A stretch of DNA of 37,875 bases from an uncultured virus (IMG/VR IMGVR_UViG_3300050030_000093) (IMGVR_UViG_3300050030_000093); one strand, 5' to 3'; shown: positions 13,109 through 37,794, numbered from the stretch's first letter. Made by a program: numbers and translations. The notes: generated by a model from the letters alone, not told the origin.

Positions 13109-13191
13109 TGCGCCCGGTGGGATTCGAACCCACGTAGGTCAACTGACCCCGGATTAAAGGTCCGGTGCATAGCCAACTTTGCTACGAGCGC
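13109..13191 (-). tRNA. tRNA-Lys(TTT), atypical (C33, long variable arm)
   Basis: GCGCTCG/CGGGCGC, CCGGA-CCTTTAA-TCCGG, V-arm GGTCAGTTGACC, GTGGG-TTCGAAT-CCCAC. Confidence 0.8.
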
Positions 13192-13198
13192 AAATTTG

Positions 13199-13283
13199 TG
13201 AGGGTAGAGGGATTCGAACCCCCTGTGTTTCTTTGTTTCGGTTTTACAGACCGAAGTCACTCCACCACCGTGACCGTACCCAC
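13199..13283 (-). tRNA. tRNA-Tyr(GTA)
   Basis: TCGGT-CTGTAAA-ACCGA, long variable region, GTTCGAATC T loop; U2.U71 mismatch. Confidence 0.85.
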
Positions 13284-13291
13284 ATGAAAAC

Positions 13292-13319
13292 AAAAAACCC
13301 GAATCTTTCGAATCGGGTT
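13292..13319 (-). terminator. Intrinsic terminator/attenuator 2
   Basis: AACCCGATTC-GAAA-GATTCGGGTTTTTT, about 8 nt upstream of tRNA-Tyr. Confidence 0.85.
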
Positions 13320-13344
13320 CTTAATATCTTTAAAAGTATATCTA

Positions 13345-13440
13345 TTACATGCCTATACTTTTGGACACAGTATTCCCGATTCCTATAAAGTGCTTTTTAT
13401 AAGATTTTTTACCGTAATAATATGTACCAAATGTAATCAT
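13345..13440 (-). CDS. Putative attenuator leader peptide 2 (31 aa, MITFGTYYYGKKSYKKHFIGIGNTVSKSIGM)
   Basis: TAT TAT TAC GGT AAA AAA TCT TAT AAA AAG run; internal GAATCGGG (13375-13382) is complementary to terminator 5' arm CCCGATTC (13310-13317). Confidence 0.8.
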   Translation of the reverse strand: MITFGTYYYGKKSYKKHFIGIGNTVSKSIGM

Positions 13441-13479
13441 TGCTTTATTTTCTAATTGTTTGTTTTAAATATCAAGTGA

Positions 13480-13510
13480 CAAATGTAGTAATAAATACCG
13501 AACTTGCAAA
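13480..13510 (-). promoter_or_regulatory. Bacteroidota-type promoter (TTTG-N19-TACATTTG) with embedded GTATTTAT
   Basis: Consensus match upstream of leader 2. Confidence 0.65.
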
Positions 13511-13526
13511 TAAAATCGCAATTATT

Positions 13527-14048
13527 TTACACATTATTTTCAAGTACGGTTTCATAATAATTAATTAACTGTTGTTCAGTACTGAAATACAGCACGTTAG
13601 TGGGTGGAGTATAATTAACCATTTCTCTGCCTTTTATGACTAAACCATCATATCCAAGTCTTTGCATTTCATCTGCAATCGTTGTTTTGCTACTGAAAAA
13701 TTCATTACTTCTCGGCACACCATGCATTTTACAAAAATTAGTAACTACTTGTTGTAAAAAAATTTCTGCATCATTTGTAGTATACACTATTTTTGGTTTC
13801 TTTGGTATTGCATTAACAAGAAAATAAACCTTACCATATTGTTTTGCCAAATCTCTATTCCCTAAAAAGGCAGAATATAAACCTTGTCCATAACTTGCAA
13901 ATCCACCATTCTCCGCAGAATTATTATTATCACGTATACCTCTTATAGTTACGTTTTGTCGTTTCCACTTTAAATAATTGACATGATTATAGTCTTCAGT
14001 CACTACATTTGCAATTTCTTCTTTAATAATGTTAACAATACTTTTCAT
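13527..14048 (-). CDS. Hypothetical protein, possibly ADP-ribosyltransferase-like fold; IKEE N-terminal motif
   Basis: 173-aa ORF; RG...GQGLYS...LGYDGLV...E pattern is reminiscent of phage ART-like domains (weak). Confidence 0.55.
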   Translation of the reverse strand: MKSIVNIIKEEIANVVTEDYNHVNYLKWKRQNVTIRGIRDNNNSAENGGFASYGQGLYSAFLGNRDLAKQYGKVYFLVNAIPKKPKIVYTTNDAEIFLQQVVTNFCKMHGVPRSNEFFSSKTTIADEMQRLGYDGLVIKGREMVNYTPPTNVLYFSTEQQLINYYETVLENNV

Positions 14049-14851
14049 TATTCAACTAATCTGATTGTCCAAAAGTCGTCTGCAACATATGGCGTATTTA
14101 TATACCAATAAGGTAAATAAAAATATCCGTTTAAACCCCATGAAGTACCCCAGGAATTTCTGACTATGAGTGAATTTTTTTCATCATCATATCCAACAGC
14201 TAATACTGCATGACCACCAATTGGTGCTTCATTGGGTAATGGTATTGGTACTTCTCCTGAATTTGCAACATCGTCAGTCATAAATGATTCGTATAATGTG
14301 AAGCCAAATATAACAGGATATCCACTTACAAGGCATTGCTTTGTATCATATGTGTTATTCGAAGATAATCTTAAATATTCTTGAACTTGATTATCGAGTG
14401 CTGTAGCATAACAATCGGGACAAGGTTTTGATTTAAATTTACCTTCATTATATTTCCACATTGTTTCAGGACATACACCTGCATCAACAAGGGTTTTAAT
14501 GCCTGTTCTTATCATTGCACCACCATCATCATTAATTGAGTTCTCAATTGACCTTTCATTATAATAAATAAATAATCTTGAAGGAATGAAATTGGGTTTG
14601 CTTTGTTTCATTTGTTCAAACTGAAATGCTGCACCAAGTGCATTTGCCGTACAACTACCAAGTTGTCCTTGGTCATAAATTGATGGGCATTGCGGTCTAA
14701 GGTCAAATAATGGCGGTAATGCTATTGGTGCGGTGACTTTGAATTTAATGTCTCTTGGGTCATATAGGTCATGTTTCCAGCCAAATTTTCTTCCTTGTGC
14801 CAAATCTTTTGCACTTTTTGATTTTCTGAAGATAATGTCAAATGTTTTCAC
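14048..14851 (-). CDS. Papain-like C1 cysteine peptidase
   Basis: DQGQLGSCTANA, GGHAVLAVGY, RNSWG catalytic motifs. Confidence 0.93.
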   Translation of the reverse strand: MKTFDIIFRKSKSAKDLAQGRKFGWKHDLYDPRDIKFKVTAPIALPPLFDLRPQCPSIYDQGQLGSCTANALGAAFQFEQMKQSKPNFIPSRLFIYYNERSIENSINDDGGAMIRTGIKTLVDAGVCPETMWKYNEGKFKSKPCPDCYATALDNQVQEYLRLSSNNTYDTKQCLVSGYPVIFGFTLYESFMTDDVANSGEVPIPLPNEAPIGGHAVLAVGYDDEKNSLIVRNSWGTSWGLNGYFYLPYWYINTPYVADDFWTIRLVE

Positions 14852-14875
14852 GATATTTATTTATTATAAATACAC

Positions 14876-14902
14876 AAAAAAAGCGGAGATTCTCCGCTTT
14901 TT
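14876..14902. terminator. Hairpin terminator between peptidase genes
   Basis: AAAAAGCGGAGA/TCTCCGCTTTTT inverted repeat. Confidence 0.7.
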
Positions 14903-14940
14903 AATATTTCGGTTTCAAAGTCTTAGACTTCGAGGCTAAT

Positions 14941-15759
14941 TTAAATTATTGATAAATCTATTTCAATTAATCTTATTGTCCAGAAGTCGGATGTTAATTG
15001 GGCAAGTGATGTATATGCATATGGCATATAAAAATAGCCATTTAAACCCCAACTTCTTCCCCAACTATTTCTTACGATTAAAGCACTTTTGGCATCGTCA
15101 TATCCAACAGCTAATACTGCATGACCACCTTCTAACTGGTCGGTATCTTTTGGCATTGACATGATACCCGTTTTTGCTACTTGGTCAGTCATAAACGATG
15201 AATAAACACTAAAGCCAAATGCAACGGGAAAACCATCAGCAAGGCATTGTTTTATTTGAGGTATTGTGGGATTAACGCTTAAATATTCCTGAACTTGATT
15301 TTTTAAAGCACTTGCATAACAATTTGCTGGTGGTTTTTGTTTAAATTTACTTATTTTATATTTCCATAAATTTTCGCTACAAACACCATTGTTATTTAAT
15401 GTTTTAATACCATTTCTTAGTGTTGCACCAGCATCACTATTTACAGTATTTTCCAGTACTCTTTCATTATAATAAATAAACAGTCTTGAAGGAATAAATG
15501 AAAGGCTTCTTTTTTTTATTTGTTTTAATTGTTCAAATTGAAATGCTCCTGCTAATGCGTTTGCTGTACAACTACCAAGTTGTCCTTGGTCATAAATTAT
15601 TGGGCATTGCGGTCTAAGGTCAAATAATGGCGGTGCTGGTTTATTTAAAACTATTTTGAACATATGGTCTCGATAGTCAGTTAATTCTGGCTTCCAATTC
15701 AAAACCCTTTTATTGATACTACTATTGGATTCGTTTTTTAAGTAATTAAATGTATCCAT
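14941..15759 (-). CDS. Papain-like C1 cysteine peptidase (tandem paralog)
   Basis: Same QGQLGSC/GHAV/RNSWG motifs; long identical stretches with the neighbour. Confidence 0.93.
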   Translation of the reverse strand: MDTFNYLKNESNSSINKRVLNWKPELTDYRDHMFKIVLNKPAPPLFDLRPQCPIIYDQGQLGSCTANALAGAFQFEQLKQIKKRSLSFIPSRLFIYYNERVLENTVNSDAGATLRNGIKTLNNNGVCSENLWKYKISKFKQKPPANCYASALKNQVQEYLSVNPTIPQIKQCLADGFPVAFGFSVYSSFMTDQVAKTGIMSMPKDTDQLEGGHAVLAVGYDDAKSALIVRNSWGRSWGLNGYFYMPYAYTSLAQLTSDFWTIRLIEIDLSII

Positions 15760-15844
15760 GATATTTTGTTTATCATAAATACTAATAAAAAAAGCGAAGT
15801 TCGCACTTCGCCTAATTTAATCTATTTGCTTCAAACACAATTCT

Positions 15845-16924
15845 TTATTCGTCTTCAAAGCCGTCCTTAAATGGTTTGCTGTAGACTGGTCGAATCATCT
15901 TCCAGATTATTTCATCATATGGTCGTTTGTCATACATCTTAAACAATATTGCACTGTATTTTGTATTTAATGCTTCAATTGCAAATGTTCTACGGTCAGT
16001 ACCCTTTACAGGATAAATTTTACCATATTCCATCAATGCTTGAGATTCAATATCATTGAAATCCCCTTTTAACTTACGAACAGTTTTTTGTAACCAATCA
16101 TAGAATTCGTCTGGAACTCTATCGAGTAGTTCGTCAAAGTCGTTATTGTTTTTCAGATGTTCCCAAATAGTTAAATTTGAAACGTTTGTTACAATGGCAT
16201 GTAATCTGCAATATTCAGCAAATTTCATTTTTAAACGAAAACCATTAGCAAATCTTAAAACAACACCTTCTTTATTATCTTCTCCAATATTTATTAATTT
16301 TCTTAATTCATCAAATGATTTAAGTTCCAGTTTTTTTACAACTGTGAAATATTCAGAATATGTAGCAAGTACACTTTCGTATGGTAGTTCATAACCACTT
16401 AAAGTTTCTATTACTGCAAGCAACACAAGTTCCCTTCTGTTACCGTAATCAAGAACAATACGGTTTTCCGGATATAAAATTTCAAATAAATATGTCATTT
16501 GTTCCTCTAACTTATCATAAAGCGGAACATGGAGCATCTTTTGTGCTTCTAATGCCTGTTCAGAAATAAATGAACCTCTGGAAGCCACTATCCATTTCGA
16601 AACTGATTTGTAGTAAAACAATATAATAAGCGAGCCATCCATTTTTTCAAATGCATCGAAATCCATTGACCAATCAATTTCTGATGGAAGATATTCTTCG
16701 TAGTTTTTGAATTTTTGAAATGGACGTGCCAAGATATTACCTTCTGCATCCACAACCAAACCACGGCATGACAAAGTATATTCGTCCCAAGCCTTCATTG
16801 CTTGAACTCTTACCGAATAGTTAAGTATCCAGATATCATATTCTGGATGCTTATTTGCCATAATAAGTTTATTGTCGATGTATGTGTTCAACAATTTCCA
16901 ATCAACCTTTTCCAACATTTTCAT
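15845..16924 (-). CDS. RNA ligase, T4 Rnl1-like
   Basis: Motif I FEKMDGS, CRGLV, PFQKFKN, ASRGSF, FEILYPENRIV, EGVV, KMK. Confidence 0.88.
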   Translation of the reverse strand: MKMLEKVDWKLLNTYIDNKLIMANKHPEYDIWILNYSVRVQAMKAWDEYTLSCRGLVVDAEGNILARPFQKFKNYEEYLPSEIDWSMDFDAFEKMDGSLIILFYYKSVSKWIVASRGSFISEQALEAQKMLHVPLYDKLEEQMTYLFEILYPENRIVLDYGNRRELVLLAVIETLSGYELPYESVLATYSEYFTVVKKLELKSFDELRKLINIGEDNKEGVVLRFANGFRLKMKFAEYCRLHAIVTNVSNLTIWEHLKNNNDFDELLDRVPDEFYDWLQKTVRKLKGDFNDIESQALMEYGKIYPVKGTDRRTFAIEALNTKYSAILFKMYDKRPYDEIIWKMIRPVYSKPFKDGFEDE

Positions 16925-16929
16925 TTCAG

Positions 16930-17475
16930 TTATACTTTAGCATATATAATACCAAATTTCAGTTCTGCATTGGGAAATATCTCCTTTACTATTTCAAGAT
17001 ACTCCTCTTGGGTTTTATAGTGTTGAAATGTTCCGGATTTGGTCACTCCCGATTGTTTTGCGGGGTTTTTATATGTTGACCTAACGTAGAGCATTCCACC
17101 ATCTTTAAGTGCATCATGCGCCATATTTAATGCATTCAACTGTATTTCATGTTCTGCTATGACATTTAATAAATTAAACATTGTCACAGTATCGACACTA
17201 TTATCCTCAAGACCATAAATAATCTTGATGTTGTGTGCCAAACTTCTGTTATACGGGTCAAACACCAGATTTGTTACACCTTTCTCCAATAATTTTTCGG
17301 TCATTAAGTCATATTTTCCACCACCGATGTCTAAATTAGTGGTATTTGGTTGCCAACCAAAATGCTTGTCGACAATCTTAAACCCTGCTGGAACCTGTTT
17401 TATTGAAGTTTTTGCTGACGTATACTTTTGATGTACCATTGAATACTTCATCTGCTCAAACGTAATTAAGTACAA
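16930..17475 (-). CDS. Class I SAM-dependent methyltransferase
   Basis: LDIGGGKYD, FDPYN, DTVTMFNLLNVI, LKDGG. Confidence 0.75.
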   Translation of the reverse strand: MYLITFEQMKYSMVHQKYTSAKTSIKQVPAGFKIVDKHFGWQPNTTNLDIGGGKYDLMTEKLLEKGVTNLVFDPYNRSLAHNIKIIYGLEDNSVDTVTMFNLLNVIAEHEIQLNALNMAHDALKDGGMLYVRSTYKNPAKQSGVTKSGTFQHYKTQEEYLEIVKEIFPNAELKFGIIYAKV

Positions 17476-17529
17476 ATATATAAAAGAATTTCATATAAAA
17501 TCAAGTATTTATAAAAAATGTGGATTTAC

Positions 17530-17979
17530 ATGAAATTAAAATCTCTTATTAAAGAAGAATTAATTGATATGGTTCGGGAAACTGCAACTCAAGCACCCGG
17601 AGCAACACTCGTAAAAGATGATAGGCTTAAATTCACTTCAATAGTTAATTCAACATTCAACAATTATGAAGGATTTACCAAGGATTTCGATACGGGCATT
17701 GATACAAGTAAAATTATTGTTCATTGGAACGTTAATTTTTTAGTAAATCCCGAAGGAATTTATAAGTTTAATGTTGAGGTAGAGCAAGTTGAGGGTCAAT
17801 TTATCTTACGTATGTATGACAAACACTCCGATGAATTAATGCAAGAAACACCAAAAAATATTGCTGATACCAAGTGGAAATTTGAAATTGGTGAAGTTGC
17901 CGTTGAACAGGGTGGATTTTTATTTGTGAGAGAATTAGAATTCGATTTTAAAAATAATGTTTGTAACGTAGTATTTTAA
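17530..17979 (+). CDS. Hypothetical protein with LIKEE N-terminal motif
   Basis: ORF after GTATTTAT (17505-17512); start MKLKSLIKEEL (alternative start 17518). Confidence 0.7.
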   Translation: MKLKSLIKEELIDMVRETATQAPGATLVKDDRLKFTSIVNSTFNNYEGFTKDFDTGIDTSKIIVHWNVNFLVNPEGIYKFNVEVEQVEGQFILRMYDKHSDELMQETPKNIADTKWKFEIGEVAVEQGGFLFVRELEFDFKNNVCNVVF

Positions 17980-17982
17980 CCA

Positions 17983-18825
17983 ATGAACTTAACATCATTA
18001 ATTAAAGAAGAGGTTAATGGCTTTCTTAATGAGTTTGCCGAAGAAGATATTGTTGATAGCCGTAATATTAATTTGCAGAAGGAATATGATGATTTAAATA
18101 AATTACTTTGGGAAGGCAAGTTGCCTAATGTCCCACTGAAATTTGATGCCAAAAAGAATGGATATGGTCGTGTAAATGGTATGATTGAACGATTCACGAG
18201 AAAAGTAATTGTACATCATCTGGCAATATCAAACATGTATAGTTTCACATATCGTCAATTTAGAAATATTATGGCACATGAACAAATTCACGTATATCAA
18301 ATGGCAGTAAAGCAAGAAAGGGGTGGTCATGGTTGGGATTTTGAGCGTGAGGCACGTAGAATTAATGGTATGGGATTGGGATTTAATATTACTGCAAGAA
18401 ACGGTGAAGATATACCAGTATCGGACCAAGCAAAACAAAATTTTAGTAAGAAAAAATTGATTGCTATGGTATTGAATTTTGATGGACAATATAGCTTAAC
18501 ATTGACAACTCCGAGCGTATATGAAAGAGAAGCAGACCAATTTTTTAAGATTTTTGACAGTGCAGTAAATAAGTTTCACAAATATAGTAGTGTGGAAATA
18601 ACTGTAATTGAAACATCAAATCCTGAAGTAATGGGATTTCCAGTTGCAAGAACATTCATGAGAAGTGTAAGGTCAGTACCATTACATGACAGATTACTTG
18701 AGCAATTGCTTAACGATAAAATAATTAAGGAAGTAAAAATAAAAAGAGGTATGCCAATGTCGGTATCCGAACAAGTTCTTTCAGAAGCCAATACGGGCGA
18801 ATGGGAAGAAATAGAAATAGTTTAA
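17983..18825 (+). CDS. SprT-like zinc metalloprotease with LIKEE N-terminal motif
   Basis: YDDLNKLLWEGKLP...IMAHEQIH...GHGWDF. Confidence 0.8.
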   Translation: MNLTSLIKEEVNGFLNEFAEEDIVDSRNINLQKEYDDLNKLLWEGKLPNVPLKFDAKKNGYGRVNGMIERFTRKVIVHHLAISNMYSFTYRQFRNIMAHEQIHVYQMAVKQERGGHGWDFEREARRINGMGLGFNITARNGEDIPVSDQAKQNFSKKKLIAMVLNFDGQYSLTLTTPSVYEREADQFFKIFDSAVNKFHKYSSVEITVIETSNPEVMGFPVARTFMRSVRSVPLHDRLLEQLLNDKIIKEVKIKRGMPMSVSEQVLSEANTGEWEEIEIV

Positions 18826-18827
18826 CA

Positions 18828-19196: not shown

Positions 19197-19203
19197 ATTT
19201 AAT

Positions 19204-21710: not shown

Positions 21711-21817
21711 TAGCGAAGATGGGAGTCGAACCCACACGGACATTACTGCCCACGGGATTTGATTTGCTCTATTCGAAGCACTAAGTCCAGCGTGTCTACC
21801 AATTCCACCACTACGCC
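21711..21817 (-). tRNA. tRNA-Leu-type gene with 21-nt insertion in the anticodon loop (intron-containing or pseudogene)
   Basis: GGCGTAG TG GTGGAATTGGTAGACAC G CTGGA CTTAG[23 nt]TCCCG, long V-arm, GTGGG-TTCGACT-CCCAT, A73. Confidence 0.7.
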
Positions 21818-21818: not shown

Positions 21819-22283
21819 TTATTTTTTATTTGTTGCATTTTTTCCTCTGTGTGTTTCTGTTTGACTATGACAATTTGGACACAACATTTTTAAGTTCGAC
21901 AACAAATGATTGGTTCTATCTCCATCAACGTGGTCTAATTCCATTTCCAATTTCTTTCTATGCCACTTATTTTTTTGTCCACATTCTTCACATTCATTTT
22001 TTTTATAACCTTCACCGACTAATCTGTTTTTTAATTTAAATGTTTGATATTCTGGATGTTTACCTTCAAATATTATTTCTTCAATTGGTATTATTTTTGA
22101 GGGTCTTTTTCTTGTACCCTTTCCCGATTGATTTGTTTTATAACAATTTAAAATTATTGCTCTTCGTTTAAAACTATTGAAATGTATTTTTAATTTTGCA
22201 GCAGCTTGCGCCATGCTTGTTGATGATTTGCATACACTAATAAAATATTTATCATTTATTCTATCTTTAATTTGTTTTGGCAT
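21819..22283 (-). CDS. HNH endonuclease
   Basis: CEECG...MELDHVDGDRTNHLLSNLKMLCPNCH. Confidence 0.92.
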   Translation of the reverse strand: MPKQIKDRINDKYFISVCKSSTSMAQAAAKLKIHFNSFKRRAIILNCYKTNQSGKGTRKRPSKIIPIEEIIFEGKHPEYQTFKLKNRLVGEGYKKNECEECGQKNKWHRKKLEMELDHVDGDRTNHLLSNLKMLCPNCHSQTETHRGKNATNKK

Positions 22284-25102: not shown

Positions 25103-25147
25103 TATTTTATTATAAATACTGTGGAAGTGCGGAAAAGTTTGTGGAAG

Positions 25148-25497
25148 TGGAGCAGAAGGGAGTTGAACCCTTGTCCAGTCATGCGACTAATACGTTTTCT
25201 ACAAGTTTATCTGAATTTTCTAATTCAGCGAAATATCTGATGTTTGCGGAACATCAACAATCCGTCTTGTCTTTTGCTTCCTTAAGCCGGAAGGTTCTTT
25301 GCTGAGTTTTTTGTTTCCTTATGCTGCGATTGCGAGTTCAGCGTTTCTTGCGAATACTGCATTACCTCTCGTAAGAGAAGTTGGAATAGACATTATGTCT
25401 TCTGCGTTTGTTGTTTTGAACCTTTTTAACGTAGTCTGATTCAACTACCACTTGCTTACTATACCACTCTGCCACGCTGTCAAAACCAGGCTGCCCC
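25148..25497 (-). ncRNA. ssrA: tmRNA
   Basis: GGGGCAG/CTGCTCC-A acceptor with G3.U70, TTTTGAC, GGGTTCAACTCCC T arm; internal tag ORF 25319-25405 AEDIMSIPTSLTRGNAVFARNAELAIAA*. Confidence 0.93.
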
Positions 25498-27293: not shown

Positions 27294-27365
27294 CACGTCT
27301 GGAAGTAATCGAAACCTCATCCACGGGTTTGGGAGCCGTTATCTTAGCCATTAGACGACAGACGT
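27294..27365 (-). tRNA. tRNA-Trp(CCA), atypical (C33, C31.C39 mismatch)
   Basis: ACGTCTG/CAGACGT, G73, ACGGC-TCCCAAA-CCCGT; a Gly(CCC) register is possible but fits worse. Confidence 0.7.
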
Positions 27366-27374: not shown

Positions 27375-27447
27375 CACACCGGGAGAGGCTCGAACTCCCG
27401 ACCTTTGCTTTTGGAGAGCACTATTCTACCAACTGAACTACCGATGT
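27375..27447 (-). tRNA. tRNA-Trp(CCA)
   Basis: ACATCGG/CCGGTGT, G73, loop CTCCAAA. Confidence 0.9.
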
Positions 27448-28158
27448 GTTAATTTGTTTTTCATAGAATTTAAGCCATTTACGTATTGTATTATCCGAAA
27501 CGCCATATTTTTTTCCTGTTGCAGTATATCCACCAGAAAAAGTAATATTATTAATTAGTTCACCATATGTTGGTCGTGATTTAACCTTACGTAAATTTTC
27601 ATGATGGCATTTTTGACATTTAGTACTATTATTTTTTATCTGAGCACCACATGAACAATAATTAATGTTTTCATGTTTTTTATATTTTTTCTTATCAACA
27701 TTTTTTCCACAATATGTGGATGTCTGTGAATGACAATTTGGACACAACACTTTTAAATTTTCTAAACGATAATCATTATTAATGCCATTAATGTGGTCTA
27801 AATGCAGACTTAATTTTTCTCCAAACCAAATTTCACTCTGACCACATTTTTCACACTTTCTTTCTTTTAATCCAAATTCAAACAATTTTAGTTTTAATCT
27901 ATGTGTATTAGTATATGTGGAATTAACAACTAAGAATTTTTTAATAAATTCTTCTTTGCTGTATTTTTGATGCAGTTTTTTATTTTTATTCCATCCCATT
28001 CCCAAAAAATGCGATGTATCAATATTATATTCATTGAATTTTTTTAATATTGTTTTATAGTTTCCACCTGCAGGTTTCAATTTAAGTAATTTAAGCACAT
28101 TAGCAATTGAATTACTTTCTTTTACAAATCGTGTTAAAACTTCTTTATTATATTTCAT
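27421..28158 (-). CDS. HNH endonuclease with C-terminal HTH
   Basis: CEKCG...LHLDHINGINNDYRLENLKVLCPNCH; GKKYGVSDNTIRKW; stop inside tRNA-Trp. Confidence 0.92.
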   Translation of the reverse strand: MKYNKEVLTRFVKESNSIANVLKLLKLKPAGGNYKTILKKFNEYNIDTSHFLGMGWNKNKKLHQKYSKEEFIKKFLVVNSTYTNTHRLKLKLFEFGLKERKCEKCGQSEIWFGEKLSLHLDHINGINNDYRLENLKVLCPNCHSQTSTYCGKNVDKKKYKKHENINYCSCGAQIKNNSTKCQKCHHENLRKVKSRPTYGELINNITFSGGYTATGKKYGVSDNTIRKWLKFYEKQINTSVVQLVE

Positions 28159-28258: not shown

Positions 28259-28332
28259 TACCCCGTCTCAGATTCGGACTGAGAGAAAACTGCTTTTAAG
28301 ACAGGTATGGTTACCAGTTACATCAACGGGGC
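28259..28332 (-). tRNA. tRNA-Leu(TAA), atypical (short variable loop, TCC T loop)
   Basis: GCCCCGT/ACGGGGT, A73, loop CTTAAAA, 5-nt variable loop, CTCAG-TCCGAAT-CTGAG. Confidence 0.75.
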
Positions 28333-28409
28333 AGTTGTCCTTATTCACGAACCATGACTTCGTGCCTAAGTGTTTGGAACTATTTGCTTCGTTATCCAAA
28401 ATAAGGTCG

Positions 28410-28484
28410 TGCAGATGGCGGGACTCGAACCCATAATCCCCACCGTGAAAGGGTGATGTCCTGAACCAATTAGACGATGGGAAA
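28410..28484 (-). pseudogene. Chimeric pseudo-tRNA-Glu(TTC)
   Basis: Good Glu D and anticodon arms (TCACC-CTTTCAC-GGTGG), but the acceptor strands TTTCCCA / CATCTGC do not pair. Confidence 0.7.
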
Positions 28485-28489: not shown

Positions 28490-28561
28490 TACTCGGTGCG
28501 GTAGTCGAAACCGCATTCATAGATTGAGAGTCTATTTTCCTTACCGTTAGAAGAACCGAGC
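28490..28561 (-). tRNA. tRNA-Glu(CTC)
   Basis: GCTCGGT/ACCGAGT, ATAGA-CTCTCAA-TCTAT. Confidence 0.9.
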
Positions 28562-28695: not shown

Positions 28696-28776
28696 TACAG
28701 CGTGGGGGATTCGAACCCCCGAACCTTTCGGGACAGATTGAAGGTCTGCCTACTTTAGCCGTTTGTATAACGCTGC
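28696..28776 (-). tRNA. tRNA-Glu(TTC), atypical (C33, long variable arm)
   Basis: GCAGCGT/ACGCTGT, GCAGA-CCTTCAA-TCTGT, V-arm CC-GAAA-GG, GGGGG-TTCGAAT-CCCCC. Confidence 0.78.
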
Positions 28777-28800
28777 ATATAATCTCCGAACTGTTTTTTG

Positions 28801-28880
28801 CACCGAGCACCGACTGATTCGACTCGAATCGGTAGCTGACATACGAGCCAGTATTCACCAGTAACCTACTTTCATTCGGT
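28801..28880 (-). ncRNA. tRNA-like RNA with non-canonical arms
   Basis: ACCGA/TCGGT-G-CA acceptor-like end, TGG-containing D-like loop, CTGGC/GTCAG stem with 6-nt loop, extended ACCGA...TCGGT arm. Confidence 0.45.
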
Positions 28881-28888: not shown

Positions 28889-28963
28889 CACTCCCGGAGG
28901 TATTCGAAACCTCTATTTTACATGGGTGACAGCCAAGTTCTTCACCAAGAAGCCTACGAGAGT
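28889..28963 (-). tRNA. tRNA-Asp(GTC)
   Basis: ACTCTCG/CGGGAGT, G73, loop CTGTCAC. Confidence 0.83.
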
Positions 28964-29592
28964 ATTGTATGTTTATTATAAAATTTAATCCATTTTCTTA
29001 TTGCATTGTCACTTACACCATATTTTTTTCCAGTTCCAGTAAATCCCAATTCTTTTATTTCATTTTGAAGTTGTTCGAATGATGGACGTTTAACTTTACG
29101 TTGAATAACAGATTGTTCTAAACGTGTAATTTTCTTTTTTTTATTTCGTTTTACATTTTTTCCACTAAATGTTGGTAAGGTTGCGTTACAATTAGGACAA
29201 ACAATTCTCAAATTTTCAAGTCTATGGTCATTATTTATCCCATTAATATGGTCAAGAATTAAACTCATGTGTTCACCATGCCAATTTTCATCTTGTCCAC
29301 ATAACTCACATTTACGTTCTTTTATTCCTTCATCATACAATCTTTCTTTTAAATTTGTCGTATTGTATGTTGAGCCAGATATTAATATTTTTGATAGTGG
29401 TGTTTTAATAAATTTATTTGAACGAACATTTCCGTTATTTGTTCCGAAATGTGATATATCAATATTATGTTGATTAATATATTTTTTTATTGTTATTCTA
29501 TTACCGTATAATTTATTACCATATAATTTAAAGCATGTTTCGGTAGTGCTATTTGATTCTGCAATAATTGCTTTTAATTTATCTATGTCCAT
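28954..29592 (-). CDS. HNH endonuclease with C-terminal HTH
   Basis: CELCG...LILDHINGINNDHRLENLRIVCPNCN; start placed at MDIDK after GTATTTAT; stop inside tRNA-Asp. Confidence 0.92.
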   Translation of the reverse strand: MDIDKLKAIIAESNSTTETCFKLYGNKLYGNRITIKKYINQHNIDISHFGTNNGNVRSNKFIKTPLSKILISGSTYNTTNLKERLYDEGIKERKCELCGQDENWHGEHMSLILDHINGINNDHRLENLRIVCPNCNATLPTFSGKNVKRNKKKKITRLEQSVIQRKVKRPSFEQLQNEIKELGFTGTGKKYGVSDNAIRKWIKFYNKHTILS

Positions 29593-29664
29593 AGCAAAGT
29601 GTTTTATATAAATACGTGATAGTTCGGCAAAGATAAACAATAATTATCATATAATCAAACATTG

Positions 29665-29946: not shown

Positions 29947-29979
29947 AAAAAACCCGACCATTTTGCGACAGTCGGGTTT
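29947..29979 (-). terminator. Intrinsic terminator/attenuator 3
   Basis: AAACCCGACTGT-CGCAA-AATGGTCGGGTTTTTT. Confidence 0.85.
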
Positions 29980-30014: not shown

Positions 30015-30107
30015 TTACCCGACTGTACATAGCTTATCCTCTTCGGCTGCCCATAATAGGACATCCACCATGAGGACTGCCATCAATATGTCGAATAATT
30101 TTTTCAT
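30015..30107 (-). CDS. Putative attenuator leader peptide 3 (30 aa, MKKLFDILMAVLMVDVLLWAAEEDKLCTVG)
   Basis: 3' end ACAGTCGGGT (30017-30026) is perfectly complementary to terminator 5' arm ACCCGACTGT (29968-29977). Confidence 0.75.
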   Translation of the reverse strand: MKKLFDILMAVLMVDVLLWAAEEDKLCTVG

Positions 30108-31253: not shown

Positions 31254-31322
31254 TGTATTTTATTATAAATACTAAATAAAGATAAACAATATGCTAAATT
31301 TTAATTAATATTATGCTTGGAA

Positions 31323-31664: not shown

Positions 31665-31745
31665 AATATTGAATTTATTATAAATACACAGTAATAATAT
31701 AAAAGTTTGGTACAGATATTGCTATTTATATATAAACATAAATTT

Positions 31746-32885
31746 ATGAAAAAAATTTTATTAATTATCTGTCTTTTGCTTTTAGCAAGTATATTATCTG
31801 CACAAAAGAAAACCAATTATGAAAAGTATTGGCAAGCCAGAGAAGACTCAATTACAAAAAGTCAAACGACTTTAAGTAATAATGCAACAGAAAATCAAAT
31901 TACTTCTGCAAAGCCAGAATATGATGACCTTTATTATCAACCAGGTAAAGATATTTCAATTGTCAAGAAGCACAAAAAAGTTAATACTGAAGATACTCTT
32001 AGGGCAATTGTTGATACTCTCGTAAATGAAAATCCAGACATTAGTATTAATTATATGTACAATGATGACCTATTCTTTTATTCAAATCATTTAGGAATGT
32101 TTTATCATGGTGGATTTAATTATTGGCACTATAATCCATTCTTTTACAACCCTTGGTATGATTGGAATTGGAATCCTTATTACGGAAATCCTTGGAGATA
32201 TGGCAATTTGGGATTTTATGATGGTTATTATTTTGGATATAATTCTTATTGGGGTTGGAATTTTGGTTGGAATTGGTATCATCCTTATTATCATAACAAT
32301 TATTGGCACGGTCAGCATAATAACTTTTACGGACGTAATAATGGTTTTAATCAACAACCTCAGTATGGTCATAGAGAAAGACCGTCAAACAATCAAATTG
32401 ATAATAGAAGAACTCAGCCACAAGAAAGAAAAATTACTGGTAGAGACCCTAATAATAGACCCACATATAATAACGAAAGAAGGGCATACACGCCTTCTTA
32501 TAATAATCCCCGTATGAGTACAAGACCACAATATAATAATACTCGTGTTAATTTGATTCGAGAAAATACTAATAGATATCAGACTAATAGTGTTAGACCA
32601 GATGTTAGAAGTCAGCAATATCGTAATACTGAAAATAGAAAAAGCGGTATTCAATCAAATATTCGTGGGTCAGAAACACGTATACCAGTACGCTCATATA
32701 CCACACCATCAAGAAGTTATGGCGAATCACGTACAATTAACAATAATGGTCAAAATAGTGGTGCTAATAGCAGTAGAAGTTTCAGTGGCTCAAATGGTTC
32801 AAGCAATTCAAGTGGTGGCAGAAGTAGCGGTAGTTCAAGTGGTTCGGGTAGTCGTTCAGGAACTTCTGGTACGGGAAGAAGATAA
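31746..32885 (+). CDS. Secreted low-complexity protein (W/Y/G/N-rich middle, R/S/G-rich tail)
   Basis: Signal peptide MKKILLIICLLLLASILSA; YDDLYY motif; resembles Bacteroidota hypothetical proteins. Confidence 0.75.
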   Translation: MKKILLIICLLLLASILSAQKKTNYEKYWQAREDSITKSQTTLSNNATENQITSAKPEYDDLYYQPGKDISIVKKHKKVNTEDTLRAIVDTLVNENPDISINYMYNDDLFFYSNHLGMFYHGGFNYWHYNPFFYNPWYDWNWNPYYGNPWRYGNLGFYDGYYFGYNSYWGWNFGWNWYHPYYHNNYWHGQHNNFYGRNNGFNQQPQYGHRERPSNNQIDNRRTQPQERKITGRDPNNRPTYNNERRAYTPSYNNPRMSTRPQYNNTRVNLIRENTNRYQTNSVRPDVRSQQYRNTENRKSGIQSNIRGSETRIPVRSYTTPSRSYGESRTINNNGQNSGANSSRSFSGSNGSSNSSGGRSSGSSSGSGSRSGTSGTGRR

Positions 32886-32972
32886 TATAAATAATTGGTT
32901 TTTTTGTTTTTACAATTGTTTTGCTGTAGTCGTTTTACAACTGTAACTGTATTTATATTAAAACGAATTGGT

Positions 32973-33431
32973 ATGAAAGAGAATAATGGAAATGTTTGGA
33001 CACTTGAAGCACTTAAAGAGCATTATGAAGCATTAATAAAACTTCAAAATGATGACTTTAACCAACTGCTTAAAGAGCGTGATGAAAGAATGGTTCAGAG
33101 GTATAATTCAATGGAATTGGCAGTTAATAAAGCAGAAGTTGCCACTGAGAAACGTTTCGAAGGTGTTAATGAATTTCGTGCACAACTTGGCGACCAATCG
33201 AGAACACTTATGCCACGTATTGAAACCGAAGTTTTGATTAAGAATATAAATGATAAAATTGAAACATCAAATAAAAGCATAAATGATAAAATTACAGCAT
33301 TAACGACCAAAATAGAAAAGACCGAAAATGTAAAAGCGGGTGGAAGTGCTATGGTTGCATATATTATTGCAGGAATATCGTTAATTATAACCGTTATTAC
33401 ACTTTTGGCAAAATTTGGTGTTATAAAATAA
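32973..33431 (+). CDS. Coiled-coil protein with C-terminal TM helix
   Basis: Start MKENNG after GTATTTAT (32949-32956); hydrophobic C-terminus. Confidence 0.7.
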   Translation: MKENNGNVWTLEALKEHYEALIKLQNDDFNQLLKERDERMVQRYNSMELAVNKAEVATEKRFEGVNEFRAQLGDQSRTLMPRIETEVLIKNINDKIETSNKSINDKITALTTKIEKTENVKAGGSAMVAYIIAGISLIITVITLLAKFGVIK

Positions 33432-33459
33432 ATAATAATTTAAAATTAAAAACAAAAAA

Positions 33460-33897
33460 ATGGAAAAAGGAATTTTAACAGCAGTACAGGAAAAGGAATT
33501 AGCAGTAATGCTTGATGACTTGGTAAAACTTAAAGGACTTTGGGAACTTGTCGATGGATATGTTTTTAAAGTTGTAATTACACTTTTAGACGATACAGTT
33601 ATCGATAAGATAAAAGAAGACATTAAAGTTAAATTAGCTGCTCTTGTGGATGCAGTAATGGCAAAAGACGTTACATTAGCAGAACAATTAGCAACAGATA
33701 TTGTCAATGGTTTAATTGATATTCCCGGTCTTGATGAAGATGCCGAAGGACTTATTTTTGGTGGAATTATTCAATTAGTTGTTGGTGCTATTTTAGCTAA
33801 ACTTCAGTCTATTAAAGGTGAACAGATTACTTTGAAATTGGCTAAACCTCAGATAATTAAAGGTCAACCAATTACTCCGAAATCAGCTAAGAAATAG
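33460..33897 (+). CDS. Hypothetical protein
   Basis: 145-aa helical ORF followed by a hairpin at 33930-33955. Confidence 0.7.
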   Translation: MEKGILTAVQEKELAVMLDDLVKLKGLWELVDGYVFKVVITLLDDTVIDKIKEDIKVKLAALVDAVMAKDVTLAEQLATDIVNGLIDIPGLDEDAEGLIFGGIIQLVVGAILAKLQSIKGEQITLKLAKPQIIKGQPITPKSAKK

Positions 33898-33983
33898 TAG
33901 TAATAACTATACTATGTATTATTTTGTATAAACTTCCGATTTTCACCGGAAGTTTATTGTATTGAAATTAATTAATAAATGTA

Positions 33984-34475
33984 ATGGCAAACGCAAAAGT
34001 TAAGGATGAATTCGACTTAGAAGAAATCAATGAGGACAAAGAATCTAAAGCAACAAAATTATTTAAAAAAATTCTTTGGTATGCAGGTGCTATAATTGTT
34101 GTTGTTCTTGCTATAGGCGGCAGCATTCAATTTCTTGTTAAAAAAGGTATTGATAAAAATGCGAGTACCGAAAAACTTGAAATTATTATTAATACTCAAT
34201 TAGCGCAAAAAAAACTAAGCGATTCAATTCTTGTTAATGTTAAAGAAATTAAAGAATTGGTAAAAGAAAATACTGAGACTGTTGAAGGGTTAAGTAATAG
34301 TTATGTATTGTTTATGCAAAACAATAAATCACTTAGTAAGGATGACTTTCGTAATTACATGGAAGGTGTAACCTGGGAAAGTAAAAAAAAAGCGGTAACT
34401 GAACCTATTGAAGTCAAGGAGGATACGAGCAAATATAGAGGTCATATTATAGTAAATAAATTGGATAAAAAATAA
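33984..34475 (+). CDS. Membrane-anchored hypothetical protein
   Basis: One TM segment, then coiled coil. Confidence 0.7.
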   Translation: MANAKVKDEFDLEEINEDKESKATKLFKKILWYAGAIIVVVLAIGGSIQFLVKKGIDKNASTEKLEIIINTQLAQKKLSDSILVNVKEIKELVKENTETVEGLSNSYVLFMQNNKSLSKDDFRNYMEGVTWESKKKAVTEPIEVKEDTSKYRGHIIVNKLDKK

Positions 34476-34484
34476 AAAATAAAA

Positions 34485-35126
34485 ATGGAAGAAATAACTG
34501 GTGGTACTCAAAATTATGATGATATTCAATGGAATGAAAAAATGTCATTGAATGCGTTTGATGTGGCTTTTATAAAAAATATGTTCAGTCGCCAAGATAA
34601 TATAAAAGAAGCATTTATATCGAATTTGTTGAGAGATAATTACAATGTTCTTGTTAATAAAATTATTAATGAATTAAACACTCGTGAAGAACATACTTTT
34701 GATGCATTAAAATATCAAGAAACTAAGGTACAAGATGCTTTAAGACTTCAAGAAGGCAAAGTAAGAGATGCTTTAAAAGAACAAGAAGGTAGAATTCTTG
34801 CAAGAGTTCATACACAAGAAGATAAAGTTCTTGCGGCATTAGAGGCACAAGAAGATAAAGTTCTTGGTGTTTTGACTGTACAAGAAGGCAAAGTTCTTGG
34901 CGCATTGGGAGTACAAGAGGGTAAGGTTCTCGATGCGGTTAGAAATCAAGAAGATAAAGTTCTTCATGCTTTAGGAAAACAAGAAGGTATTGTTTTTGGC
35001 GTTTTGGCTGTGCAAGAAGGTAAGGTTCTTGATGCTTTGGAAGTACAAGAAAAAAAGGTTCTTGATGCTTTAGATAAGCAAGAAGGTAAAGTTCTTAATG
35101 TTTTAAACGGAAACGGCAAAAAATAA
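34485..35126 (+). CDS. Protein with 12 tandem 11-aa QEGKVLDALxx repeats
   Basis: 33-bp periodicity at 34716-35111. Confidence 0.75.
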   Translation: MEEITGGTQNYDDIQWNEKMSLNAFDVAFIKNMFSRQDNIKEAFISNLLRDNYNVLVNKIINELNTREEHTFDALKYQETKVQDALRLQEGKVRDALKEQEGRILARVHTQEDKVLAALEAQEDKVLGVLTVQEGKVLGALGVQEGKVLDAVRNQEDKVLHALGKQEGIVFGVLAVQEGKVLDALEVQEKKVLDALDKQEGKVLNVLNGNGKK

Positions 35127-35131
35127 AATGC

Positions 35132-36352
35132 ATGAAAGATTCTGCTAAAATACTTCTATTGGATAACTCTGAAATCCAAGCAGAGTTGATTTCTAATTTA
35201 TTGAAAAACAACGAATATACCACAGATATATTAATTGCAAGCGATAGAAAATCCTTCATTTCTATATTAGAAAACAATAAGATTGATGTGATGATATGTA
35301 GTCATGTTTTACCTGAAGGATTTAATTCTTTGGAAGCATTTAGGCTTGCAAAAAGCACATATCCAGACATTTTGTGTATTCTGCTTTCAGGTACAATTAA
35401 TGATGAATTTGCTATTGAGATACTTAAAGAAGGATTTGATGATTATGTCAATAATGACCATTTATCTTTTTTACCGTTTTCAATTGAAAATGCGTATTTA
35501 AAAAATCTGTATAGGGATGAAGTGGCTAATTTGGAAAATGTGAACAAAGAATTAGAAAGGTCATATAAGATAATTGAAGAAGAAAAGAAGACCATAACCC
35601 AAAGCATTATATTTGCGGCAAGAATACAAGCACTAACACTCCCAAAAATTGATTTCTTATTAAAAAATTTTAGTGAAGCATTTGTATTTTATAAACCCAA
35701 AGATATTGTTAGTGGTGATTTTTATTGGTTTGCCGAAAAAAATGGCAATATTATTGTTGTTGTTGCTGATTGTACGGGACATGGTGTGTCTGGTGCGCTA
35801 TTAGCAATGCTTGGCAGTAATTTCTTAAATGAGATTTTGGCAGATGAAACTTGTACCAATAATCCTACAGACATATTAACCAGGCTTGATGCGCATATTT
35901 GTAAAGTATTAAATCAGTCATCCGGTGATGGATATCAAGATGGAATTGATTTAGCATTGATATCAATTAATAAAACCGAAAAGAAAATATATTACTGTGG
36001 ATGCCAGAGGTCATTATTATATTTGATGAAGGGCGAGAAAAAGATTACCACATATAAAGGTAATCCATATTTAGTTGGCGGTGTAGATTATAGAATTGAA
36101 AAAATATTCCCTACACAAGAAATTAAATATGAAACTGATGATGTGATTTACATGTATAGTGATGGTTATGTTGACCAATTTGGCGGGAAAGAAAATAAAA
36201 AGTTATTAAAAGATAATTTCTTCACGTTATTAAATTCTTTTCAGCATCTTGGATTGGAATATCAGTGTCAATTACTCGAACAAAGATTATTAAGATGGAA
36301 AGGCACTAACGACCAAACTGATGACATATTAGTGCTTGGTATTAAACTTTAA
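35132..36352 (+). CDS. Receiver-like domain + PP2C/SpoIIE (RsbU-like) Ser/Thr phosphatase
   Basis: VSGDFY, VADCTGHGVSGA, YSDGYVDQFGG, DQTDDILVLG; N-terminal REC fold. Confidence 0.9.
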   Translation: MKDSAKILLLDNSEIQAELISNLLKNNEYTTDILIASDRKSFISILENNKIDVMICSHVLPEGFNSLEAFRLAKSTYPDILCILLSGTINDEFAIEILKEGFDDYVNNDHLSFLPFSIENAYLKNLYRDEVANLENVNKELERSYKIIEEEKKTITQSIIFAARIQALTLPKIDFLLKNFSEAFVFYKPKDIVSGDFYWFAEKNGNIIVVVADCTGHGVSGALLAMLGSNFLNEILADETCTNNPTDILTRLDAHICKVLNQSSGDGYQDGIDLALISINKTEKKIYYCGCQRSLLYLMKGEKKITTYKGNPYLVGGVDYRIEKIFPTQEIKYETDDVIYMYSDGYVDQFGGKENKKLLKDNFFTLLNSFQHLGLEYQCQLLEQRLLRWKGTNDQTDDILVLGIKL

Positions 36353-36795
36353 ATACGCTTATTTGTAGATAAGATAAAAATATCTCCCGATTGGTCTATA
36401 TTATAAACCTTAAAATAGGTTTCGAATAATGACTTAATGTTCATACTTCCTGCAGGATTCATTGAATGAATCAAAATATCTGCAGGAAGTTTTTTATTGT
36501 TGTCAATACAATAGTCAATAAGCCACTTGGCACAATGGTATCCGGTCTTTTCGTCAAACATGTCGTAGATTTGTTCATACGATTCAGTACCAACAATTTT
36601 TGGGTCATAATGTTCATCAGCAAGGTCGTGGTCGAAACTAATAATATCCGGAATACCTTTACCTTCAATTATCTGTACAAAGGCATAGTAATTCCTGACG
36701 ATGGACCAATCGACTGAAATATAAATTGGAAGTTTCATGTAGTCGAAGGTATCCTTCGGCATCCGAACATCGTCTAAGAATAAGTTGTATCCCAT
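36349..36795 (-). CDS. Cyclic-phosphate-processing receiver-domain protein
   Basis: LFLDDVR, ISFDHDL, TGYHCAKWL, IHSMNPAG signature. Confidence 0.8.
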   Translation of the reverse strand: MGYNLFLDDVRMPKDTFDYMKLPIYISVDWSIVRNYYAFVQIIEGKGIPDIISFDHDLADEHYDPKIVGTESYEQIYDMFDEKTGYHCAKWLIDYCIDNNKKLPADILIHSMNPAGSMNIKSLFETYFKVYNIDQSGDIFILSTNKRI

Positions 36796-36797
36796 AA

Positions 36798-37007
36798 TTA
36801 TTTAAGTATTTCATTTAAACTATCTCTGAGCATTATTGCCATGCTCTTGGTCATAAGAATCTGATTATCATACCAATCAAAACCCCATGTGAGTTTTATA
36901 ACTGGTTCGCCCTTTTCTATTTTATCTGTTACTTCGGGATTGACGACCCAATAAATATCGGTCTTCGGGTCAATCTTTATAAATCCGTTTTCATCTGCTT
37001 TTTCCAT
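36798..37007 (-). CDS. Hypothetical protein
   Basis: 69-aa ORF after motif copy 2. Confidence 0.6.
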   Translation of the reverse strand: MEKADENGFIKIDPKTDIYWVVNPEVTDKIEKGEPVIKLTWGFDWYDNQILMTKSMAIMLRDSLNEILK

Positions 37008-37018
37008 AATTCATGTGA

Positions 37019-37047
37019 TTATACGTAAATAAATACAAAATGTTACA
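37019..37047 (-). promoter_or_regulatory. Bipartite motif TGTAACA-N13-TACGTATAA (copy 2)
   Basis: Matches 26809-26837. Confidence 0.6.
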
Positions 37048-37114
37048 ATTAATTGTCTTTTTAAAATTTTAACCGTATTTATTTAAATAATTCACGAAGT
37101 TAAAAAAATAAATT

Positions 37115-37624
37115 ATGAAAGCAAAATATTTAAAGGAAAATTTCGAACCCATAGTTAAATGTTCAAAGAATTACACTGAAGTTTTACAAAAAATGGGGTT
37201 GGGTATTAAAGGCAATTCAAGACCGATATTAAAAAAATACGTAAAACTATATAACATTAATATTTCTCATTTTGAAACTGATGTGGAAAGATATTCAAGA
37301 ACAAACAGTAAATTAAATGATTCTCGAAGATTTCTTACAAGTAAAATATTAGTGTCGGGGTCAACATATACAAATGTGGGTAATATTAAAAATCGTTTGT
37401 ATGAAGAAGGATTAAAAGAACGAATTTGTGAAAAATGTGGACAAGACGAAAATTGGCACGGGGAACACATGAGTCTGATACTTGACCATATAAATGGTCG
37501 TAATTCGGACCATCGTTTAGAAAACTTACGAATTTTATGTCCTAACTGTAATTCAACATTACCGACACATTGTCGTTGTCGTAAAAAAGTTGACCTTGTA
37601 GGACTCGAACCTACACTCGCCTGA
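37115..37624 (+). CDS. HNH endonuclease, convergent with and overlapping tRNA-Gln
   Basis: CEKCGQDENWHGEHMSLILDHING...LRILCPNCN; close paralog of 28954-29592 lacking the HTH tail. Confidence 0.9.
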   Translation: MKAKYLKENFEPIVKCSKNYTEVLQKMGLGIKGNSRPILKKYVKLYNINISHFETDVERYSRTNSKLNDSRRFLTSKILVSGSTYTNVGNIKNRLYEEGLKERICEKCGQDENWHGEHMSLILDHINGRNSDHRLENLRILCPNCNSTLPTHCRCRKKVDLVGLEPTLA

Positions 37625-37663
37625 ATCAAAATCAGATGTGTTAACCAATTACACCAAAGGTCA
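37590..37663 (-). tRNA. tRNA-Gln(TTG)
   Basis: TGACCTT/AAGGTCA, TCTGA-TTTTGAT-TCAGG. Confidence 0.9.
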
Positions 37664-37711
37664 ATGTTTTGCAAAGATAATAATAAATACGACAATTCAA
37701 AGAACATTTAG

Positions 37712-37794
37712 TAGTCCCTGTAAGATTCGAACTTACAAACCCGTTGGGGTGTCAGCTTCAAAGACTGATGCAATGACCATTCTGCCAAAGGACT
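37712..37794 (-). tRNA. tRNA-Gln(TTG), atypical (long variable arm)
   Basis: AGTCCTT/AGGGACT, TCAGT-CTTTGAA-GCTGA, V-arm ACCC-CAAC-GGGT. Confidence 0.8.

Follow-up and report, generated by a model that had tools for sequence, protein, structure and literature searches.

We analyzed a 37,875-nucleotide stretch of DNA (the window) from the uncultured virus IMGVR_UViG_3300050030_000093, in which tRNAs for lysine, glutamate, aspartate, and glutamine, all class I amino acids, carry a long variable arm. The variable regions concerned comprise at least 10 nt, as in bacterial class II tRNAs (Ser, Leu, and Tyr). Judging from their sequences, the long-arm tRNAs are probably working decoding tRNAs that host synthetases charge with the cognate amino acid. 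Our best reading, to which we incline with modest confidence, is that they are cognately charged replacement tRNAs induced at decoding stalls, the arm serving as a disguise against tRNA-targeting defense.

The window is phage DNA of 32% GC with 14 tRNAs called by ARAGORN and a tmRNA, all on the minus strand. The four long-arm tRNAs reported in the initial annotation were borne out, ARAGORN placing each of them on the minus strand at the same coordinates. The annotation had also put a short-arm tRNA for the same amino acid near each. Such a neighbor was present in all four cases, but the neighbors of tRNA-Lys and tRNA-Glu have other anticodons (CUU and CUC), so that a true short twin exists only for Asp and Gln. 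The tRNAs concerned are as follows.

13109..13191, minus strand: tRNA-Lys(UUU) with a 15-nt variable arm, 4-bp stem, A73, C33, and a 3-bp D stem
28696..28776, minus strand: tRNA-Glu(UUC) with a 12-nt variable region, 2-bp stem, GAAA loop, and C33
29665..29751, minus strand: tRNA-Asp(GUC) with an 18-nt variable arm, 3-bp stem, G73, C38, G1:C72, and G2:C71
37712..37794, minus strand: tRNA-Gln(UUG) with a 15-nt variable arm, 4-bp stem, A73, and A15:U48
12340..12412, minus strand: short-arm tRNA-Lys(CUU), found by ARAGORN and Rfam
28490..28561, minus strand: short-arm tRNA-Glu(CUC), found by ARAGORN and Rfam
28889..28963, minus strand: tRNA-Asp(GUC) with a 7-nt variable loop, found by ARAGORN
37590..37663, minus strand: short-arm tRNA-Gln(UUG), found by ARAGORN and Rfam
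28259..28332, minus strand: tRNA-Leu(UAA) without a long arm (5-nt loop), the reverse swap
13199..13283, minus strand: tRNA-Tyr(GUA) with an A-rich, unpaired variable region, the first gene past the Tyr/Lys terminator described below

Each of the four long-arm tRNAs has acceptor and T stems of 7/5. With the Rfam model RF00005, tRNA-Lys and tRNA-Gln scored 57 and 58 bits, and tRNA-Glu and tRNA-Asp fell below the gathering score. Folding alone supported the cloverleaf for Lys (z -2.8) and Glu (z -2.2) and left it unsupported for Asp and Gln. The tRNA at 13109..13191 is the sole Lys(UUU) seen in the four tRNA clusters of this phage, and in these clusters no intact reader other than the long copies was seen for AAA and GAA, its two commonest codons (427 and 349 of 5875, respectively).

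The window belongs to a clade of uncultured Bacteroidota-type phages of 320-365 kb, among them seven complete relatives (322-365 kb). No cultured relative was found, the best protein match being ~32% and the DNA matches short tRNA pieces only; in a search via a neighboring protein, only the source contig carried the four long-arm tRNAs. The tRNA acceptor ends agree with those of two Bacteroidota genomes, and promoter-like TAnnTTTG sites, which we take to be of the Bacteroidota promoter type, lie upstream of the tRNA clusters. In three RNA runs, 5-7% of words matched (word matching with unaligned reads). The clade tRNA sample was drawn from leader- and terminator-pattern scans and from genome stretches: 1237 ARAGORN calls, 1148 of them passing stem filters, yielded 675 distinct sequences. 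Two doubtful long calls (Phe GAA and Ile AAU) and seven CUA tRNAs were not counted.

A long variable arm was present in 90 of the 537 distinct class I tRNAs of the clade, covering 14 amino acids; the clade sequences are related, so these counts overstate the number of independent events, and Pro and Gln alone make up 43 of the 90. The pattern extends beyond Lys, Asp, Glu, and Gln. The arm was also missing from 34 of 71 clade Leu tRNAs. No long arm was seen among the 33 Arg, 17 Ala, and 14 Phe tRNAs of the clade class I set. When Met and Trp were excluded, 81 of 431 tRNAs with U34 or G34 were long versus none of 59 with C34. For comparison, long arms were present in 5 of the 98 class I tRNAs at 226 other viral loci, which were mostly unrelated loci among the matches listed for a broad long-arm Lys pattern and were hence drawn with biased patterns. 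The class rule was broken in none of 57 tRNAs of the two Bacteroidota genomes (the best 30 of 33 and the best 30 of 41 matches, most of the remaining ones being long). Among the 31 long class I tRNAs of the seven complete genomes, 19 are accompanied by a short copy with the same anticodon and 22 by one for the same amino acid; after a recheck, 8 of the 31 are the sole copy for their amino acid (7 if a relaxed Asn-like call is counted).

Further features distinguish these tRNAs. A purine-purine pair at 13:22 was found in 56/90 long class I tRNAs and 50/93 tRNAs for class II amino acids, compared with 45/447 short class I tRNAs. C33 replaces U33 in all six long Glu and in two of six long Lys sequences. 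Short copies have it as well, with 15 such sequences for Glu(UUC) and 10 for Lys(UUU). Counting long and short forms together, C33 is concentrated in Glu(UUC) (21/38 distinct sequences) and Lys(UUU) (12/35). An initiator-type tRNA-Met with a 21-nt variable region was seen outside the clusters at locus L440, from position 836 (G007).

We examined whether the arms are paired. Single arms of 12-18 nt, such as those in the window, paired no better than their own shuffles (P 0.10-0.33); therefore, arms were judged by family comparison. At least 3 bp could form in 82 of the 90 long class I arms of the clade, with a mean of 4.1 versus 2.7 bp after shuffling. The Pro arm showed two-sided changes at four of seven pairs (15 sequences). 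A scan of metagenomes with the Asp D arm returned 54 loci, 16 of them within tRNAs and 14 of these Asp(GUC); all 14 copies have arms of 14-21 nt together with G73 and C38. Across the window copy and these 14, pair 2 of the Asp arm is G-C, A-U, C-G, or U-A. The Gln alignment (23 distinct long sequences) was gapped in the arm, and anchored counts gave little variation there. These results indicate that the long arm is kept and paired across families. Some tRNA-Ala genes with 7-nt variable loops (L462 and L465) share the odd D arm seen in the long Asp family.

The origin of the D region and acceptor was judged by the nearest host tRNA. The D region was closest to host Ser, Leu, or Tyr tRNAs in 52/90 long versus 46/447 short class I tRNAs. 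Acceptors showed no such shift (13/90 long versus 57/447 short). In the window, the D arm of tRNA-Gln is nearly identical to that of a clade tRNA-Ser, and the D region of tRNA-Glu is Tyr/Ser-like; the closest matches of tRNA-Lys and tRNA-Asp are short tRNAs from their own families. A Val-type D arm is retained in five of six long Val tRNAs, and a cognate-type D region also occurs in some Lys and Asp tRNAs, which points to more than one route of arm gain. From these comparisons, we infer that arms arose both by rebuilding of class II genes and by growth within cognate genes.

We next consider which amino acid these tRNAs would carry. In 77 of the 90 long tRNAs, the discriminator was the majority base of their short counterparts for that amino acid (shuffled mean 43.8, maximum 59), and the 1:72 pair agreed with the short tRNAs in 73 (shuffled mean 20.8, maximum 37). 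The majority discriminator base agreed for all 14 amino acids. Several marks are as in the two Bacteroidota genomes, namely, U73 in Thr, Gly, and Cys; A1:U72 and G73 in Trp; G1.U72 and A73 in Glu; and C1:G72 and A73 in Pro. In the window, tRNA-Lys has the cognate marks UUU and A73, and tRNA-Glu(UUC) has G1.U72 and A73, the same as the Bacteroidota tRNA-Glu examined. The determinants of AspRS are given in PMC9976931 as G34, U35, C36, C38, and G73, and the window tRNA-Asp has all five. The window tRNA-Gln combines the cognate anticodon with a host-type A73; its first pair is A1:U72, whereas 18 of 23 long Gln tRNAs have U1:A72. According to the same source, two changes in the acceptor turned an amber tRNA-Ser body Gln-specific, and the arm is dispensable for E. 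coli LeuRS (PMC9976931).

Marks of the class II synthetases were also counted. The Leu set A73 plus A15:U48 occurs in all 37 long Leu tRNAs versus 17/90 long class I tRNAs. Among the four window tRNAs, only tRNA-Gln has it, and A15:U48 is also present in 55 of 56 short Gln tRNAs. The Ser/Asp combination G73 plus G2:C71 occurs in 8/90 long class I tRNAs, and the Ser set G1:C72, G2:C71, and G73 is found among the four only in tRNA-Asp, for which these are equally Asp marks. Arm stems measure 2-4 bp in the four tRNAs, compared with a clade Ser mean of 5.6 bp; the long Pro family, with a mean of 6.6 bp, has Ser-like length and geometry. As a test for recoding, the 752-residue gene at 881-3139 was compared with 142 of 150 homologues (the closest match and short pieces having been dropped). 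Conserved columns held Glu under GAA in 8/8 cases, Asp under GAC in 9/9 and under GAT in 5/9, and Pro under CCA in 4/4; under AAA, Lys was found in 9/15, Ser in none, and Leu in one, and CAA offered one column only. Recoding was thus not seen in this one gene, in a test that partial mischarging would escape. Four Pfam synthetase families gave no matches in five genomes each, with other synthetase families not searched.

The tRNA genes lie in four operons, each downstream of a leader open reading frame (ORF) and an intrinsic terminator. Three leaders are in the window, and the fourth (Pro/Gln/His) is just past it on the same contig.

13345..13440, minus strand: leader ORF of 31 codons, Tyr/Lys-rich, with the core YYYGKKSYKK; antiterminator stretch 13375-13382
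13292..13319, minus strand: intrinsic terminator separating the Tyr/Lys leader from tRNA-Tyr, tRNA-Lys(UUU), and tRNA-Lys(CUU)
30015..30107, minus strand: leader ORF of 30 codons, Asp/Glu/Leu/Trp/Val/Ala-rich; antiterminator stretch 30017-30026
29947..29978, minus strand: intrinsic terminator before the Asp/Glu/Leu/Trp tRNA cluster
604..735, minus strand: leader ORF of 43 codons, Thr/Ser/Ile/Arg/Asn/Gly/Phe/Cys-rich; antiterminator stretch 618-630
549..577, minus strand: intrinsic terminator before tRNA-Cys (380-450) and a cluster running past the window
L001 1810-2040, beyond the right window end: Gln/Pro/His-rich leader and terminator, then tRNA-Pro(UGG) with a 25-nt Ser-like arm

Nineteen amino acids are divided among the four leaders. 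All 81 distinct leaders collected contain every amino acid of their own set, a composition that the leader-collecting motifs partly fix. In these leaders, the leader end pairs with the first arm of the terminator over 8.2-8.8 nt, compared with 4.4-5.1 nt in the preceding control stretch, and mutually exclusive terminator and antiterminator folds were both predicted for the three window leaders. A terminator pattern gave 26 matches at viral loci, comprising 22 with a leader and downstream tRNAs, one whose leader lies at a contig end, and three that were unrelated; in bacterial genomes, this narrow pattern gave six ordinary terminators, none of them with a leader and downstream tRNAs. Peptide patterns preceded Tyr/Lys tRNAs at 33 of 35 loci and Pro/His/Gln tRNAs at 36 of 37, and that of the Asp cluster stood before matching tRNAs in 21 of 118 cases among the matches listed. 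Cluster order is constant in seven genomes, with the Tyr/Lys cluster cut to Tyr in one. In the attenuators of amino-acid operons (trpL, hisL, thrL, and pheL), the sensed amino acids abound in a leader ORF, which is followed by an antiterminator at the leader end and an intrinsic terminator before the first gene. The phage leaders have the same layout and instead appear to control phage tRNAs. The clusters thus have the matching leader ORF and the putative terminator and antiterminator of an attenuator, and dependence on stalling is predicted. A motif that we take to be boxA-like lies at 472, 29772, and 37703 on the minus strand, just upstream of tRNA-Cys, the long tRNA-Asp, and the short tRNA-Gln.

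Two other kinds of genes enter the interpretation.

15845..16924, minus strand: T4 Rnl1-type RNA ligase, possibly for tRNA repair, with a presumed tie to the tRNAs
12398-13048, 21819-22283, 27421-28158, 28954-29640, and 37115-37624: HNH endonuclease genes (phrog_10822/14736 type) interspersed with tRNA genes

In the reading that we prefer, host synthetases would charge the long-arm tRNAs with the amino acid of the anticodon, on a body unlike the host's. When host tRNAs are cut or uncharged, a ribosome would stall in the leader, the antiterminator would form, and the matching operon would be transcribed. The addition of an arm to class I tRNAs and its removal from Leu tRNAs might alter the shape that host tRNA nucleases or modifying toxins recognize at a distance from the cleavage site, which is the weakest step, and a mixed set of tRNA bodies might leave at least one survivor. 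The leader-matched attenuators, the T4 Rnl1-type RNA ligase, and C33 in the Glu and Lys loops form a context for such camouflage. AriB contacts tRNA positions outside the anticodon loop (PMC12409363), and VapC52 cleaves a variable loop (PMC13273310). Camouflage against tRNA-targeting defense is still the best motive and is partly supported, with resistance itself a conjecture; whether defense evasion is the reason for the arm is, in our judgment, evenly balanced. More tentatively still, the phage may hold an inducible, near-complete back-up tRNA set whose class I/II architecture is inverted relative to the host, still charged and yet unseen by immune nucleases, with four attenuators that release the destroyed group.

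Several observations weigh against this reading. The long form is rare in Asp (3/36) and Lys (6/53) sequences, and many clade members get by with short copies alone. Eleven of the 23 long Gln tRNAs have A73 plus A15:U48, part of the Leu set. E. coli GluRS requires U11:A24, the U13-G22:A46 triple, and a missing residue 47, according to PMC9976931. The host-type tRNA-Glu examined has this build, but the window tRNA-Glu lacks U11:A24 and the short variable loop, and all six long Glu tRNAs have A13.A22 and a long variable region instead of this core. Serine identity comes mainly from the arm, and a yeast tRNA-Ser with a Pro anticodon is still serylated; the Pro family, with its Ser-like arm of 7-8 bp, is therefore at risk. 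The escape changes mapped in phage tRNAs, including those for OLD resistance, lie in the anticodon arm in the text available (PMC12445682 and PMC12409363), and escape through the variable arm was not found in the accessible parts of the literature on tRNA-targeting defense. The relatedness of the clade sequences and the influence of the collecting motifs on leader composition, both mentioned above, also count here.

The main rival is that the arm is a neutral by-product of tRNA recruitment. In this view, fast-evolving phage tRNA arrays would take up Ser, Leu, or Tyr genes whose anticodon has shifted and would exchange modules through recombination. The arm would go unnoticed by synthetases that recognize nothing but the anticodon and the acceptor end, and the tRNAs would work with their cognate amino acid and only add decoding capacity. 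By inspection of the sequences, many long families are one base off a class II anticodon (for example, Pro UGG and Thr UGU from Ser UGA, and Cys GCA from Ser GCU), and the class II-like D regions of 52/90 long tRNAs and the odd D arm shared by Asp and Ala tRNAs fit such recruitment. The absence of long arms from Arg, Phe, and Ala would be in keeping with synthetase limits alone, and some class I tRNAs (5/98) are long in unrelated viral loci too. However, compensatory changes preserve arm pairing, and arms are also found on the cognate-type bodies of Val, Lys, and Asp tRNAs. In addition, the loss of the Leu arm means that swaps go in both directions, each time off the host type, and the absence of long arms from C34 tRNAs (none of 59, versus 81 of 431 with U34 or G34) also counts against a by-product. 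We consider this explanation unlikely, though it deserves the most attention of the alternatives.

The initial annotation had also proposed mis-acylation through recognition of the arm by SerRS or LeuRS. The tRNAs would then carry Ser or Leu and cause missense suppression like that of nev-tRNAs and allo-tRNAs. Precedents are given in PMC3333845 and PMC5389517, the Pro arm is Ser-like, and the Asp and Gln tRNAs of the window bear marks that are also those of Ser and Leu, respectively. This proposal was not supported and is improbable: acceptor marks track the anticodon, the Leu set and G73 plus G2:C71 are confined to 17/90 and 8/90 long class I tRNAs, and the tested gene showed no recoding at GAA, GAC, or AAA. 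Asp arms form 3-4 bp versus the Ser mean of 5.6, the long Gln discriminators are A in 11, G in 7, and U in 5 sequences, a mixture that LeuRS would not retain, and misreading of the commonest codons would harm the phage's own proteins. Still less probable, the long-arm tRNAs could be decoys, or RNAs that take no part in translation, and could tie up the tRNA nucleases or toxins of the host. The AriB authors suggest a possible inhibitor action of overexpressed viral tRNAs (PMC12409363), certain charged irregular tRNAs are described as unused in translation (PMC5389517), and C33 stands in place of U33 in every long Glu and in two long Lys tRNAs. By contrast, C33 is shared with short Glu(UUC) and Lys(UUU) tRNAs, the tRNAs retain full synthetase marks, a 7/5 acceptor branch, and loops of 7 nt, and sole copies sit in leader-matched operons. 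It is equally doubtful that the rebuilt genes are alleles immune to HNH homing endonucleases that cut the conserved tRNA genes of rivals. HNH genes do follow the long tRNA-Lys and long tRNA-Asp and lie beside other window tRNAs, but the conserved arm pairing would be left unexplained. Adjacency to such genes was set aside as a candidate association: an ORF of at least 100 amino acids, of whatever type, followed 19/44 long versus 74/229 short class I tRNAs (P 0.17) and lay on either side of 24/44 versus 115/229 (P 0.62).

With cognate charging and disguise as the preferred explanation, we compared the tRNAs with known systems, within the parts of the cited sources that were available. Reviews assign long variable arms to Ser, Leu, Tyr, and Sec tRNAs, and the known exceptions mischarge or have odd acceptor stems. 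The window tRNAs share the variable region of at least 10 nt with class II tRNAs and differ in having a class I anticodon and acceptor end. They resemble nuclease-resistant phage tRNAs (T5 tRNA-Lys against PARIS AriB, tRNA-Thr against P2 OLD, and tRNA-Tyr against retron-Eco7; PMC12409363, PMC12445682, PMC11555353, and PMC10264068) in their host-targeted anticodons, divergence from the host type, large arrays, and nearby RNA ligase. In the resistant tRNAs, a few anticodon stem or loop bases or high expression are described and no class change; here, resistance is only proposed. The nev-tRNAs of nematodes (PMC3333845) likewise combine a long arm with a non-Leu, non-Ser anticodon, but they always have A73 (115 of 115 genes), are charged with Leu, and serve mostly rare codons, whereas the phage tRNAs have anticodon-matched acceptor marks and serve main, often the commonest, codons. 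The change of base 73 with the anticodon speaks against the nev-tRNA type. Allo-tRNAs and selC* tRNA-Cys (PMC5389517), from prokaryote and phage metagenomes, also have a long variable arm and varied anticodons, and selC* has Cys marks. Their acceptor branch is 8/4 or 9/3 and their identity mostly Ser; the 7/5 branch in all four window tRNAs sets these apart from allo-tRNAs and selC*. Literature searches turned up neither cognate class I phage tRNAs with a long arm nor tRNA operons under attenuation, although papers behind subscription or supplements consisting of figures may be relevant to novelty. The long-arm tRNAs are real, and their closest kin are the nuclease-resistant phage tRNAs in function, nev- and allo-tRNAs in shape, and amino-acid attenuators in control.

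Other features of the window and its relatives were also recorded. At 21711-21817 (minus strand), the anticodon loop of a tRNA-Leu body is interrupted by an insert of 21 nt that forms a hairpin; relatives have a Leu(UAA) of this family at the corresponding place. In another phage (L144), an insert of equal length (21 nt) occupies this anticodon-loop site and shows a compensatory change. The inserts appear intron-like, with ambiguous splice points. A second gene resembling tRNA-Trp, irregular in its anticodon arm, lies at 27294-27365 (minus strand; Rfam and relaxed ARAGORN), and tRNA-like remnants missed by ARAGORN and Rfam lie at ~28405-28482 and 28790-28880 (minus strand), the first with a Glu(UUC)-type D arm and anticodon arm. 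A CUA (amber) tRNA ends the last cluster in each of G003, G004, G006, G007, G008, G009, and G010; when TAG and stop-codon recoding was considered, coding cover showed no clear gain in the stretches tested. The minus strand also encodes a ribonucleotide reductase with a LAGLIDADG intein (7336-11103) and a phage tmRNA with a 28-residue tag (25147-25497), and a receiver-SpoIIE protein (35132-36795) faces a cREC receiver gene.

The 90 natural long-arm class I tRNAs with matching acceptor marks would map the synthetases that tolerate an arm and would supply tRNA scaffolds. If the proposed disguise is true, it would be a second way around tRNA-cutting immunity. The codons named by each leader are those whose shortage should turn on its tRNA set, so that the question of why phages carry tRNAs becomes testable.

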